Below are positions 23,504 through 28,096 of a stretch of 64,000 nt of DNA, one piece after another; position 1 is the first letter of the stretch, and every line of letters starts with the position of its first letter. The DNA lies in NCBI GenBank assembly GCA_024654535.1, contig JANLHL010000042.1, positions 13,312-77,311 on the forward strand, in the 5' to 3' direction. Under the pieces are notes generated by a model. That model saw only the letters and a list, made by a program, of their open reading frames with translations. It was not told the DNA's origin and did not search any database. The stretch is from Candidatus Roizmanbacteria bacterium. GTDB taxonomy: Bacteria > Patescibacteriota > Microgenomatia > UBA1406. The position numbers and the translations under genes are program-made.

Positions 23504-23512
23504 TGTTACAAT
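23504..23512 (+). promoter_or_regulatory. Extended -10 promoter (TGtTACAAT), 6 nt before ATG 23519 (leaderless)
   Basis: Sequence reads tgt tacaat agaaac ATG. Confidence 0.45.
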
Positions 23513-23518
23513 AGAAAC

Positions 23519-24688
23519 ATGGCGCGTGTACGAATAACAGAATATAGTGCAAAAAAGACACTTGCTAAAAATGGCATTATGCCCTGTTGGAAGGGTATGA
23601 AAGCAACAGTTAATACGAACGTTCATGATATTGTTTCCTTTTTTGGAGACCTACCATTAGTGGTTAAAGTTGATGAAGGTATTAAAAAGAGAGGAAAGCA
23701 GGGACTGGTTTTTATCAACGGGACAGCAGATGACATAGTTTCATTTATAGAGAAAATCCAAAAAAGGGGATATTCTCAATTTTTGATAGAACCTTTTATC
23801 AAGCATGAGGTAAAAGATGAGCGCTATCTTTCTTTAGAACGTGTACGAGGAGGTATGAAGATACTCTATGGAGAAGAAGGGGGTATTGATGTGGAAAATG
23901 TGTGGGATAGGGTAAAAACGTACGTGGTTTCAGAAGAAAAGCCTCTTTCCAAGTTTTCGGTACCAAGTGGGCTTATCGGTCTGATTGAAAAACTTATCGC
24001 ATACATGAATATGTACCATATATCATTTTTCGAGATAAACCCACTTGTGATTAGTAGCTCGATACAGATTCTAGATTGTGCGATGGAAGTTGATGATGCT
24101 GCTTCTGGCTCTCAAGGAATGGAAGACGTTATGAGCGGAGTCGTTCATGAGAAAACGAGGCATAAAGTAGAAGAAACAATTTCAGCATTAGATGAGAATA
24201 CCCCAGCATCACTTAAGTTTACATTGCTTAATAAGGATGGAAGTATATGGGTGTTGTTGTCGGGTGGAGGTGCGAGTTTAGTATTAGCAGACGAAGTTGC
24301 CGATATGAAAAAAGGCAATTTACTTGCAAATTATGGTGAGTATAGTGGTAGTCCAACGAGCGAAGATACCTATTTATACACGAAAGCCGTTCTTTCTGCT
24401 TTGTGTGAATCAAAGGCGCCAAAAAAGGTCCTTCTTATTGCTGGAGGTGTGGCAAATTTTACAGACGTTTCAAAAACGTTTAAGGGAATTATCCAAGCAT
24501 TGAAAGAAGTTTCAGATGAACTCAAAAAACAGAACGTACGTGTGTTTGTTCGACGTGGAGGACCAAATCAAACAAAAGGCCTTGCAGAAATGAAAGAATT
24601 TCTTATTCAAAAAGGATTACTTGGTTCTGTTGACGGTCCAGAAATGCCATTGACCGACGTGGTACATAAAGCAATAGATTTGCACTAG
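23519..24688 (+). CDS. ATP-citrate lyase ATP-grasp/citrate-binding subunit (AclB / plant ACLA-type; or citryl-CoA synthetase large subunit)
   Basis: Near-colinear motif match to ACL ATP-grasp subunits: MARVRITEYSAKK (cf. MARKKIREYDSKR), SLKFTLLNKDGSIWVLLSGGGASLVLAD, NYGEYSGSP, GGVANFTDVSKTFKGIIQALKE, VFVRRGGPNQTKGL. Confidence 0.9.
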   Translation: MARVRITEYSAKKTLAKNGIMPCWKGMKATVNTNVHDIVSFFGDLPLVVKVDEGIKKRGKQGLVFINGTADDIVSFIEKIQKRGYSQFLIEPFIKHEVKDERYLSLERVRGGMKILYGEEGGIDVENVWDRVKTYVVSEEKPLSKFSVPSGLIGLIEKLIAYMNMYHISFFEINPLVISSSIQILDCAMEVDDAASGSQGMEDVMSGVVHEKTRHKVEETISALDENTPASLKFTLLNKDGSIWVLLSGGGASLVLADEVADMKKGNLLANYGEYSGSPTSEDTYLYTKAVLSALCESKAPKKVLLIAGGVANFTDVSKTFKGIIQALKEVSDELKKQNVRVFVRRGGPNQTKGLAEMKEFLIQKGLLGSVDGPEMPLTDVVHKAIDLH

Positions 24689-24987
24689 ATTTTTTTAAAC
24701 ACCCTGAGCACAATGAGCATGACTCCCATATATACTGCAAGAGTGTAGGGAGAAAAGATGAGAGAGAATACAACGGAACTTACAAGAAAAATCATAAAAG
24801 TGAGTGATTGTAGGTAAATATTGGTAATTCGTGCAAGTGAAAGCATTATGTAAACGGCAACAAATGAGCTGAAACGAAAGGGTTTAAGTGGAATATGAAG
24901 AACATAAGAGAGTATAAGAAATACCCCTAGTAACAATATAAATACATCTTTTTCGTCGAACGTTTTATTTTTAAAGGTAAAGTACAT
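24685..24987 (-). CDS. Small membrane protein (100 aa, 3 predicted TM helices)
   Basis: Hydrophobic ORF. Its ATG overlaps the stop of the upstream 57-aa ORF (TAATG). Confidence 0.5.
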   Translation of the reverse strand: MYFTFKNKTFDEKDVFILLLGVFLILSYVLHIPLKPFRFSSFVAVYIMLSLARITNIYLQSLTFMIFLVSSVVFSLIFSPYTLAVYMGVMLIVLRVFKKI

Positions 24988-26339: not shown

Positions 26340-27265
26340 TATCTTTAACTTCTCTACGAAATCAAATAAACACGGTTGTAGTAATAGGTATGCATCAACC
26401 TATCATTCAGTCCATTCTCGACTTTGATTATTATGCAGGAAAAAAAGAACCAAGTATTACCTTTATAGTCACAGGAAATAATGGGTACGAGAAATTTTTT
26501 TGGGGTAATACTGAACGTCTTATTGAAACGACCAAGTATATTTCGAAAGCTACTCATGGATGGTTCTTGAATGTATTATCGGGAAGAAGGGCTCTTTCTA
26601 TTGGATCAAAGCTTATGCAGATACCGAGTGTTTATGGTGGGGTTTTTTTTGCAGAGAACGTCCCAGAACAGCATGCCTTAACATTATTTCGAGATGCCCA
26701 AAAATATGAAAAGTTATGTATCGGTCCCTCGAGTGTTGGGCTTCTTGTTCCTGGGTATCTGAAACTTGGACCAATAGGCGGAATAACTCCAGAGCAAGTT
26801 GAGCCAATTGCAAAGAATAGTAACGGGGAAATTGCCATACTCTGTGGTTCAGGTGGTATGACGAATGAACTCATTCATCTTGTTTCAAAACAGAAATTTG
26901 GTATTTCGTTTGCACTCTCTTTCGGTGGTGATAGATTTCCACTTACGACACCGCAGCAAGCGTTTTTATTAGCGCAAAATGATCCTCAAACTCGCGCAAT
27001 CGTTTACTACGGAGAGCTCGGAGGAGAAGATGAATATGAAATAGCTGCATTAAAGAAACGGGGAGAGTTAACGAAACCGGTCATTATGCACATCTCTGGT
27101 ACTGTCGCACACCTATTTCCACAAAATCCGCAATTTGGCCACGCAAAAGCGAAGGCTTCTGTACAACGAGAAACAGCCGTATCAAAGCGTAGTGCGTTAA
27201 AAGAAGTGGGTTTTATGGTTACTGAAAGATTTAGCGATGTGAGTGAATACTTGAGCAAGCTATAA
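26336..27265 (+). CDS. ATP-citrate lyase CoA-binding/CoA-ligase (SucD-like) part, with phospho-His loop
   Basis: ILDFDYYAGKKEPS (cf. MLDFDFLCGRETPS), GELGGEDEY, KPVIMHISGTVAHLFPQNPQFGHAKAKA (cf. QFGHAGA). Confidence 0.88.
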   Translation: MISLTSLRNQINTVVVIGMHQPIIQSILDFDYYAGKKEPSITFIVTGNNGYEKFFWGNTERLIETTKYISKATHGWFLNVLSGRRALSIGSKLMQIPSVYGGVFFAENVPEQHALTLFRDAQKYEKLCIGPSSVGLLVPGYLKLGPIGGITPEQVEPIAKNSNGEIAILCGSGGMTNELIHLVSKQKFGISFALSFGGDRFPLTTPQQAFLLAQNDPQTRAIVYYGELGGEDEYEIAALKKRGELTKPVIMHISGTVAHLFPQNPQFGHAKAKASVQRETAVSKRSALKEVGFMVTERFSDVSEYLSKL

Positions 27266-27295
27266 GTAACCTGTTAACTTTGGTATACTTACGTC

Positions 27296-28096
27296 ATGGC
27301 AGATACAATTTCAAATTTACGGACACACTCTCTATTCACCAGCACTATTTCTTCCCAAAAAAACGGAGAAACGATGCTTTTGGGTAAACCATTAGAAAAG
27401 TTTATTGCACAGCATAGTTTTACCTGGGTTGTTGGGTCATTATGGCTGGGTAAAGAAATAACTTCTAAAAAAACAGAGGAAGTTATGGATATTATCGTAC
27501 GCTTGGGTGTGGATCATGGACCGTATGTGTCTGGCGCTATAAACACCATTATTGCAGCCCGGGCTGGTAAAGACCTAGTTTCTGCACTCTGTTCAGGACT
27601 TTTAACCATAGGTCCACGTTTTGGCGGGGCAACCAATGCTGCTGCCGAGGTATGGTTTAATAGTGTACAAGAGAGTAAAAACCCTGTAGCGGTTGTTGAA
27701 GAGCATGCAAAGGCAAAGAAATATATCCCTGGAATAGGCCATAAACAATACCGTATAGACATACCAGATCCTCGCGTGAGAGATCTTACGAAGCTGTACG
27801 AATCGGGTGTATACCTTGACTATGCACGAAAGATAGAAGCTATTACGACAAAAAAAAAGCCGAATTTGATCCTCAATATAGATGGGGCAATTGCTGCAAT
27901 AATGCTAGATATTCTTGAAAAAGAAGAAAAATTGACGAACGAACAAATAGCAGCATTACTCAATGCACAGTTTATGGATGGATTATTTATTTTGTCACGT
28001 ACAGTTGGATTTATAGCGCACTACTTTGATCAGCGACGTTTGAATGAGGGTTTATTTCGTATGCCAGTTGAACACATCTTCACTCCAGAGATATGA
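27296..28096 (+). CDS. Citryl-CoA lyase / citrate-synthase-like C-terminal module of ATP-citrate lyase
   Basis: [41 protein letters not shown] closely matches the ACLY segment [33 protein letters not shown].RFGGA. Also IPGIGHK, NIDGAIA and [18 protein letters not shown]. Confidence 0.88.
   Translation: [266 protein letters not shown]

Follow-up and report, generated by a model that had tools for sequence, protein, structure and literature searches.

ATP-citrate lyase (ACL) in candidate phyla radiation (CPR) bacteria was described by Sieber et al. (2019; PMC6851277) as a two-subunit enzyme of a Gracilibacterium, "rarely detected in CPR" and proposed to act on external citrate, and the same proposal has been made for groundwater Gracilibacteria (PMC11452946). 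In addition, an enrichment of aclAB was reported for metagenome-assembled genomes (MAGs) of Saccharimonadia (PMC12577380), and a preprint (10.1101/2022.10.25.513756) presented CPR and DPANN sequences that had been mis-annotated as succinyl-CoA synthetase or citrate synthase and that group with citryl-CoA synthetase (CCS) and citryl-CoA lyase (CCL). The "Type II ACL" of the literature is something different and occurs in tubeworm symbionts. When we searched the literature for an ACL that is split or has three subunits, and for any ACL of Roizmanbacteria, nothing specific came up. Here, we analyse three genes in a 64,000-nucleotide stretch of a MAG of Candidatus Roizmanbacteria, a groundwater-type bacterium with a tiny genome (contig JANLHL010000042.1; the whole stretch is referred to as the window), for which an original prediction, made from the sequence, had proposed a three-piece ACL or, alternatively, a CCS together with a CCL.

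The prediction regarded citrate cleavage as unexpected in CPR bacteria. This part was overstated, as ACL is already published for Gracilibacteria and Saccharimonadia and is, by our scan, widespread in Microgenomates and Saccharibacteria. Compared with the literature that we found, the new elements are the division of the enzyme over three genes and the origin of this split from a fused AclA, a GHAKA signature in the phosphohistidine loop, and the breadth of the enzyme in Microgenomates.

Results

Three genes encode the parts of an ATP-citrate lyase

The three open reading frames (ORFs) were recovered with exactly the coordinates and sizes that had been predicted (389, 309 and 266 aa), and the quoted motif QFGHAKAKA as well as two further quoted stretches of 13 and 12 residues were found in the proteins. 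The parts of the enzyme are as follows:

23519 to 24688, plus strand: gene 1, aclB-like subunit with an ATP-grasp and an ACL citrate-binding domain, 389 aa (ORF call, Pfam, PDB matches)
26336 to 27265, plus strand: gene 2, N-terminal half of AclA, CoA-binding and SucD-like with the phosphohistidine, 309 aa (ORF call, PDB matches)
27266 to 27295, no strand: spacer at the fission point, 30 nt with two TAA stops (translation SKL-stop-VTC-stop-LWYTYV, followed by the MADT start of gene 3)
27296 to 28096, plus strand: gene 3, C-terminal half of AclA, the citrate-synthase-like CCL module, 266 aa (ORF call, PDB matches)

Gene 1 matched the Pfam families Citrate_bind (PF16114; 3.9e-59, 199.6 bits, cutoff 26.8) and ATP-citrate synthase ATP-grasp (PF24948; 2e-29, 103 bits, cutoff 83), gene 2 matched Ligase_CoA (7e-15), and gene 3 the C-terminal part of Citrate_synt (2e-19). 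For all three proteins, the best match among solved structures was human ACLY, namely 3mwd_A for gene 1 (3.5e-60), 5tde_B for residues 6–306 of gene 2 (5.5e-48), and the CCL module 6hxk for gene 3 (4.8e-55). The Methanosaeta enzyme scored 6.8e-59 (6hxi_A), 3e-44 (ACLY-B) and 6.6e-52, respectively. Weaker matches of gene 1 were the large subunit of Hydrogenobacter CCS (1.2e-15) and SucC (about 1e-6); those of gene 2 were Chlorobium AclA (2e-28), SucD (1e-23 or weaker) and the small subunit of Hydrogenobacter CCS (2.6e-18); and those of gene 3 were the Chlorobium enzyme (1e-36), Hydrogenobacter CCL (1e-17) and citrate synthases (2e-6 or weaker). The corresponding bit scores for genes 1, 2 and 3 were:

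Human ACLY: 207, 167, 190
Methanosaeta concilii ACLY-A/B: 203, 155, 180
Chlorobium limicola AclB/AclA: 128, 103, 130
Hydrogenobacter CCS/CCL (6hxq_B, 6hxq_A, 6hxp_A): 61, 70, 68
SucC, SucD and citrate synthase: about 30, about 84, about 31

None of the curated NCBIfam cutoffs for SucCD or citrate synthase was reached, with 61–67 bits for the SucC models (cutoffs 370–375), 105–107 bits for SucD (336–353) and 18–45 bits for citrate synthase (330–590), and the citryl-CoA lyase models likewise stayed below theirs (49–99 bits, cutoffs 193–409). Because the bit scores against solved structures favour ACLY, the gene set is, judged by its sequences, an ACL proper of the eukaryote- and Methanosaeta-like kind, which places it outside the CCS/CCL lineage despite its three polypeptides. 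The predicted resemblance to Hydrogenobacter CCS/CCL is thus one of architecture, with a separate lyase of about 260 aa, as in the Hydrogenobacter/Leptospirillum type (266 aa for gene 3), and similar sizes of the other parts, but it does not extend to the sequences, which are far more distant from CcsA/CcsB/Ccl than from ACL (61, 70 and 68 versus 207, 167 and 190 bits). The citrate-binding subunit, the phosphohistidine together with the E599 equivalent, and the His/His/Asp/Arg set of the CCL module, all of which characterize ACL, were present, and the SucD-like part and the CCL module, joined in a single AclA polypeptide elsewhere, are separate in the window. Domains, structure matches and mapped catalytic residues therefore agree on a complete three-piece ACL set, as predicted. 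Paralogues of genes 1–3 were not found within the window.

Catalytic residues are kept, and the phosphohistidine loop carries a clade-wide lysine

For residue mapping, human ACLY numbering was rebuilt from the printed alignments and transferred onto the window proteins, with the CCL residue numbers taken from the alignment of gene 3 to human ACLY. The list of the ACLY catalytic centre (G281-283, S308, E599, S663-G665, H760) was that of PMC11365397. In gene 1, the ATP-grasp residues K58, K64, R66, E118, N203 and D216 correspond to K50, K56, R58, E101, N174 and D186, the citrate-site residues G281-283 and S308/G309 to G249-251 and S276/G277, and the citrate-loop residues N346, F347, T348 and R379 to N313, F314, T315 and R346. 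In gene 2, E599 corresponds to E107, S663-G665 to S172-G174, and H760 to the phosphohistidine H269. In gene 3, H900, H975, R986, D1026, R1065 and R1085 correspond to H74, H149, R160, D196, R235 and R255, whose catalytic roles we take to be those of citrate synthase and ACLY; these six residues were invariant in 21 homologues. Loss of catalytic residues, which would have spoken against an ACL, was thus not observed, since every mappable catalytic residue of human ACLY is kept in the alignment. Across the 21 CCL homologues, mean column identity was 68%, and the family is under strong purifying selection.

Two positions depart from human ACLY, G762 being replaced by K271 (GHAKA for GHAGA) and H908 by I82. 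The phosphohistidine loop lies at 27137–27163 (gene 2 residues 268–276), and its GHAKA version was found in 81 of 82 CPR ACL sequences. The CPR-like representatives of clusters at 50% identity also have GHAKA, and all non-CPR representatives, including DPANN and eukaryote-like ones, have GHAGA or GHAGS. Within the GHAKA clade, the CCL module reads SGA(V/I)NT where others have SGAHNT.

AclA is split in one subclade of CPR enzymes

To place the split, ORFs were called in 84 fetched loci (L001–L084), 80 of which (L005–L084) came from a motif scan, and matched to the three window proteins. In 63 of the 80 scan loci, aclB is followed by a fused aclA, mostly of 588–643 aa and in one case of 684 aa. 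Separate SucD-like (314–330 aa) and CCL (264–273 aa) genes accompany aclB in 13 loci, one of them partial at a contig end; the remainder comprises three loci with the CCL gene alone (short contigs or a contig end) and one contig-end fragment. The locus pairs L001/L002 and L003/L004 are also split, with SucD-like proteins of 327–369 aa and CCL proteins of 264–285 aa. The breakpoint coincides with the short inter-domain linker of AclA, which is truncated in the split form.

Genes 2 and 3 of the window are in the same frame, but the 30-nt spacer between them holds two TAA codons, and in 9 of 14 split loci the frames of the SucD-like and CCL genes differ or the two genes overlap. For both reasons, we rejected read-through of a stop codon, or recoding, at this junction.

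In a neighbour-joining tree of the CCL part rooted with human ACLY, all 19 split sequences formed one clade nested among fused CPR sequences. A tree of concatenated AclA with more outgroups recovered the split clade as monophyletic in 75 of 100 bootstraps; these outgroups (a DPANN archaeon, other archaeal-like AclA and eukaryote-like single chains) are all fused, and the fused P0127, which also has the GHAKAKA motif, branches just outside the split clade. Because CPR relatives are mostly fused and the split forms constitute one derived subclade, the trees point to a single secondary fission as the most parsimonious reading, at the modest support that the neighbour-joining method gave. An ancestral CCS/CCL state of the split was rejected on the bit scores and the tree topology. 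A further AclA-like protein, P0125 (1003 aa), has a tandem arrangement in which a SucD-like part and a CCL are followed by a degenerate SucD-like part and a second CCL; the first CCL copy is without the DHGP histidine motif.

Unrelated genes lie between gene 1 and gene 2

The prediction also held that unrelated genes interrupt the set, among them two small membrane-protein genes. Indeed, 1.65 kb with three intervening ORFs at 24685–26339, the two small membrane genes and one gene for a Cys-rich secreted protein, separate gene 1 from gene 2. Together with the neighbours outside the enzyme, the surrounding features are:

23368 to 23439, minus strand: tRNA-Trp just upstream of aclB; this left border of the locus is conserved, with a tRNA in the same place in L085, L003 and L009
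24685 to 24987, minus strand: small hydrophobic protein, 100 aa, with about three predicted transmembrane helices as judged by eye; the gene is an unrelated insert and converges with aclB (ORF call)
24987 to 25160, minus strand: small hydrophobic protein, 57 aa, unrelated insert (ORF call; also called as a gene in L085)
25206 to 26339, plus strand: Cys-rich secreted or surface protein, 377 aa, unrelated insert (ORF call)
28093 to 28629, plus strand: pth, peptidyl-tRNA hydrolase, a neighbour outside the enzyme (TIGR00447 at 1e-45)

The Cys-rich gene and gene 2 overlap by ATGA at 26336, as do gene 3 and pth at 28093, and the order ccl-pth was also found in L003, L009, L085 and L087–L090. The two small minus-strand ORFs have no Pfam match. 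Both are real genes, as predicted, because their protein identity to the sister-species locus L085 (92% for the 100-aa and 93% for the 57-aa protein) exceeds the 82% DNA identity of the region. The Cys-rich protein has a signal-like N-terminus, a Cys-rich domain, a Pro/Thr linker and a C-terminal domain, and matched neither Pfam nor NCBIfam models. It has 63 homologues, and the few named ones are hypothetical proteins of Roizmanbacteria, Patescibacteria-group and unclassified-bacterium MAGs. The prediction also proposed a leaderless promoter that would drive the Cys-rich gene, genes 2 and 3 and pth. A promoter scan returned 25 sites compared with 16.5 ± 4 in shuffled sequences, an excess too small to speak for or against this proposal; the promoter-like match nearest to the Cys-rich gene, TAGAAA-18-TATAGT at 25145–25174, ends 31 nt before its ATG.

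The Cys-rich gene is present at the same place in L085 and L086, whose CCL is 91% identical, and missing from the other 80 ACL loci. L085 is the only close relative with a contig that reaches the insertion, the contigs of relatives with 71–86% identity being too short. In all other loci the acl genes are contiguous, with the exception of L085/L086, which carry the insertion of the window, and L005. The latter, also of the split type, has an unrelated 309-aa ORF at 4979–5908, between its SucD-like gene and its CCL gene (5983–6792). Since the window and L085/L086 on the one hand and L005 on the other carry different inserts, genes were inserted into the acl operon at least twice within the split subclade. 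In the CCL protein of L005, VDHGPY has become VDNGPY, which puts an Asn in the place of the H900 equivalent.

The locus belongs to a CPR genome and has many CPR relatives

Gene 3 is 100% identical to the NCBI protein NUV65_06215 of a Candidatus Roizmanbacteria MAG, and this match and the lineage record identify the host as a CPR bacterium (Roizmanbacteria; Patescibacteria group, Microgenomates group). Mis-binning, which would have undermined the prediction, found no support, as GC content is even, synteny is shared with CPR MAGs and gene content is typical of CPR, including ComEC/ComEA, sortase, PEGA, MreB, many glycosyltransferases, LeuRS and NDK. The order galT-like...acl...pth...GT4 is common to the window and other CPR MAGs. 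We rejected an origin from Chlorobi, Nitrospirae or Aquificae, be it by mis-binning or by recent transfer, since composition is uniform and all close relatives are syntenic CPR MAGs.

Gene 3 has 1053 homologous clusters (90% identity) at E ≤ 1e-10, and the motif scan, using one genome per GTDB species, yielded at least 588 related loci. The few representatives named in a cluster listing were a DPANN Norongarragalinales archaeon, a Dojkabacteria bacterium and an unclassified "bacterium". Among the loci listed, all named and classified ones are CPR: Roizman-, Woese- and Levybacteria, Microgenomates, Saccharibacteria/Saccharimonadales, Paceibacterota and "Patescibacteria group", the other titles being generic, e.g. 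"bacterium". This suggests that ACL is common in two large CPR classes, Microgenomates and Saccharibacteria.

Many TPA-assembled MAGs titled "uncultured Gammaproteobacteria" or "uncultured Pseudomonadales" (L005, L006, L011, L013, L014, L016, L017 and others) carry CPR-type ACL loci with 50–63% identity to that of the window, and these taxonomic labels look wrong. The functional labels in the sources also deviate: stand-alone CCL proteins (P0012, P0017, P0045, P0048, P0080) are named "citrate synthase" and AclA proteins (P0131, P0132) "citrate/2-methylcitrate synthase", and the SucD-like piece matches succinate--CoA ligase models below their cutoffs.

Other features of the window

A cobalamin riboswitch (RF00174; 52 bits, E 4.5e-10) at 20783–20934 on the plus strand lies upstream of a plus-strand ORF at 20996–22459, which encodes 487 aa ending in a Cys-rich zinc-ribbon-like tail and has neither a Pfam match nor a PDB relative. 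Riboswitch and ORF are conserved in the sister locus (L085, 3335–3486); the orthologous ORF of L003 (475 aa) has no riboswitch at the gathering threshold. The 487-aa product may be a B12-regulated protein in a CPR genome. Adjacent minus-strand genes encode a cohesin domain (56288–56995; 2e-7) and a type I dockerin (57536–58774; 5e-5), and a GH5 cellulase-like and CHAP protein is encoded at 47463–49691; together, these predicted domains hint that a CPR bacterium may build a surface assembly resembling a cellulosome. The window also contains two MreB/Mbl paralogues at 17903–18925 and 62372–63457, both on the plus strand (4.5e-123 and 2e-89), within 64 kb of a reduced genome.

Discussion

Taken together, the sequence evidence makes it probable that genes 1 to 3 specify a working ATP-citrate lyase of the heterotrimeric type (EC 2.3.3.8 chemistry), which belongs to a CPR-specific lineage and in which AclA has been split secondarily. 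In the proposed mechanism, the product of gene 1 would bind ATP and citrate, H269 of the gene 2 product would be phosphorylated and pass the phosphoryl group to citrate, which with bound CoA would give citryl-CoA, and the gene 3 product would split citryl-CoA into acetyl-CoA and oxaloacetate. AclA fission would have occurred in the subclade of the window at the short inter-domain linker, the second and third parts being one polypeptide in most CPR relatives, and the three-gene interruption would be a later insertion. Following AclA fission, citryl-CoA would therefore have to reach a CCL module that is free or held to the other parts by non-covalent contacts.

Most likely, the enzyme has an anabolic role: from citrate that is scavenged from a host or from the surroundings, it would provide oxaloacetate as well as acetyl-CoA, the latter for instance for the acetylation of amino sugars, the cell envelope and other targets. 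We liken this role to that of the cytosolic ACLY of eukaryotes because the organism is without a tricarboxylic acid (TCA) cycle. In line with the prediction that no other TCA gene is visible, none of the approximately 55 of 68 larger ORFs that could be annotated by Pfam or L085 synteny is a further TCA, citrate-transport or acetate-pathway gene. Neighbouring genes in relatives with a fused AclA fit a supply of acetyl-CoA for amino-sugar and envelope acetylation: murB lies downstream of aclA on the same strand in 17 loci (gap of −16 to +106 nt in 11 of the 17), glmS lies 0–13 nt downstream in six loci of a different fused clade, and a GNAT acetyltransferase (immediately upstream), an Acyl_transf_3 protein and a Kbl/BioF-family glycine C-acetyltransferase occur in five loci each.

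Several points weigh against a functional ACL with this role. The amino-sugar and acetyltransferase neighbours come from fused-AclA relatives only, and their counts are given without a chance expectation for loci that, within a clade, are not independent; the neighbours in the split subclade of the window are housekeeping genes only (YidC, Band_7, GroES/EL, pth). The 64-kb window showed neither a citrate transporter nor a consumer of oxaloacetate or acetyl-CoA. Each citrate cleaved by ACL costs one ATP, a high price for a fermenter unless acetyl-CoA itself is needed. The canonical glycine of GHAGA is a lysine here (K271), though clade-wide (81 of 82), and the free CCL module may or may not still dock on the synthetase part. 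Finally, no CPR ACL is known to have been assayed as an enzyme.

In the alternative that survives best, genes 1 and 2 form a citryl-CoA synthetase that frees citryl-CoA and gene 3 is a separate lyase, as in Hydrogenobacter, with no ACL holo-complex. The lost covalent link and truncated linker would fit such an arrangement, as would the unrelated genes between the parts, both in the window and in L005 (309-aa ORF). There is also a precedent, since Aoshima's work reportedly established that citrate cleavage with this chemistry is carried out by separate enzymes in Hydrogenobacter. On the other hand, the sequences are of the ACL and not of the CCS/CCL type, genes 2 and 3 are adjacent in all 13 split relatives except L005, and Verschueren (2019) reportedly found the synthetase modules of solved ACLs to be organised by the CCL module, which forms the core for tetramerisation. 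Two separate enzymes are possible, but we give them distinctly less credence than an assembled ACL.

An ACL working mainly in reverse, from acetyl-CoA, oxaloacetate, ADP and Pi to citrate, CoA and ATP, for energy conservation or citrate making, appears quite unlikely. The ACL reaction is near equilibrium and reversible, reverse operation has been described in Desulfobacter postgatei, CPR bacteria depend on substrate-level phosphorylation, and the window showed no citrate transporter. Against it, neither aconitase, isocitrate dehydrogenase nor another citrate consumer is in the window, and the genes next to acl in relatives use acetyl-CoA or serve amino sugars, as would suit a production of acetyl-CoA. 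Published CPR reconstructions, moreover, propose cleavage of external citrate (PMC6851277, PMC11452946).

A reading of the genes as ordinary SucCD with a truncated citrate synthase beside it, or as remnants in decay that have no ACL function, is hardly credible: public labels ("citrate synthase", "citrate/2-methylcitrate synthase", "hypothetical protein") and the departure from GHAGA would agree with it, but the SucC/SucD and citrate synthase scores are far below their cutoffs (61–107 versus 336–375 and 18–45 versus 330–590 bits), the ACL-specific Citrate_bind domain is found at 3.9e-59, all mapped catalytic residues are kept, the ORFs are intact, and the family is strongly conserved over hundreds of species.

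Returning to the split ACL, its recognition has consequences for annotation. Metabolic reconstructions of CPR bacteria could be misled by the public labels into "partial TCA cycle" (gltA) calls, and seeing the pieces as one ACL corrects that annotation. The wide distribution suggests that citrate serves these symbionts as an important currency in their exchange with hosts or the environment, and the split AclA together with the clade-wide lysine provides test cases for the evolution of ACL from CCS/CCL, for the covalent link and for the glycine of GHAGA. The main use of the finding thus lies in the corrected annotation and in a natural experiment on ACL architecture. A bolder and rather doubtful extension would make the GHAKA-type ACL a hallmark of Microgenomates and Saccharibacteria (at least 588 loci), by which they would obtain most of their acetyl-CoA and oxaloacetate, with citrate coming from the host, feeding in particular UDP-GlcNAc, peptidoglycan and envelope synthesis, and representing a bacterial counterpart of eukaryotic cytosolic ACLY, with the split subclade as a natural reversal of the CCS/CCL-to-ACL fusion. 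If true, the split subclade would show that the CCL core need not be covalently tethered.

Compared with known systems, the genes are most similar to the ACLY-A/B of Methanosaeta (Methanothrix) concilii (6hxi, 6znw) and to eukaryotic ACLY (6hxh, 6o0h), with which they share the same domains in the same order. They differ from both by the split of AclA at the linker, by GHAKA for GHAGA and SGA(V/I)NT for SGAHNT, by three unrelated genes that part aclB from the rest, and by the setting, with neither a TCA nor a reductive TCA cycle in view. With the CcsAB and Ccl of Hydrogenobacter thermophilus (6hxq, 6hxp), the locus has in common three polypeptides of similar sizes, a separate lyase and the two-step chemistry. 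In contrast to this system, which is distant in sequence (61, 70 and 68 bits), gene 1 has a Citrate_bind domain, and the separation appears to be secondary and not ancestral. The Gracilibacteria ACL (PMC6851277, PMC11452946) likewise occurs in a CPR genome without a TCA cycle, with external citrate as the proposed substrate, but it has two subunits and GHAGA and was described as archaeal-like by lateral transfer (PMC6851277). Judged from this motif only, the GHAKA clade of Microgenomates and Saccharibacteria is probably an acquisition separate from that of Gracilibacteria. The CPR loci with aclB and a fused aclA (Saccharibacteria, Levybacteria and some Roizman- and Woesebacteria; L046, L079, L024) belong to the same clade as the window, with CCL parts that are 47–57% identical, and share GHAKA, gene order and a compact operon. 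Whereas these loci encode a single AclA of about 590–610 aa, the subclade of the window has two genes in its place and the lineage of the window, in addition, the 1.65-kb insertion.

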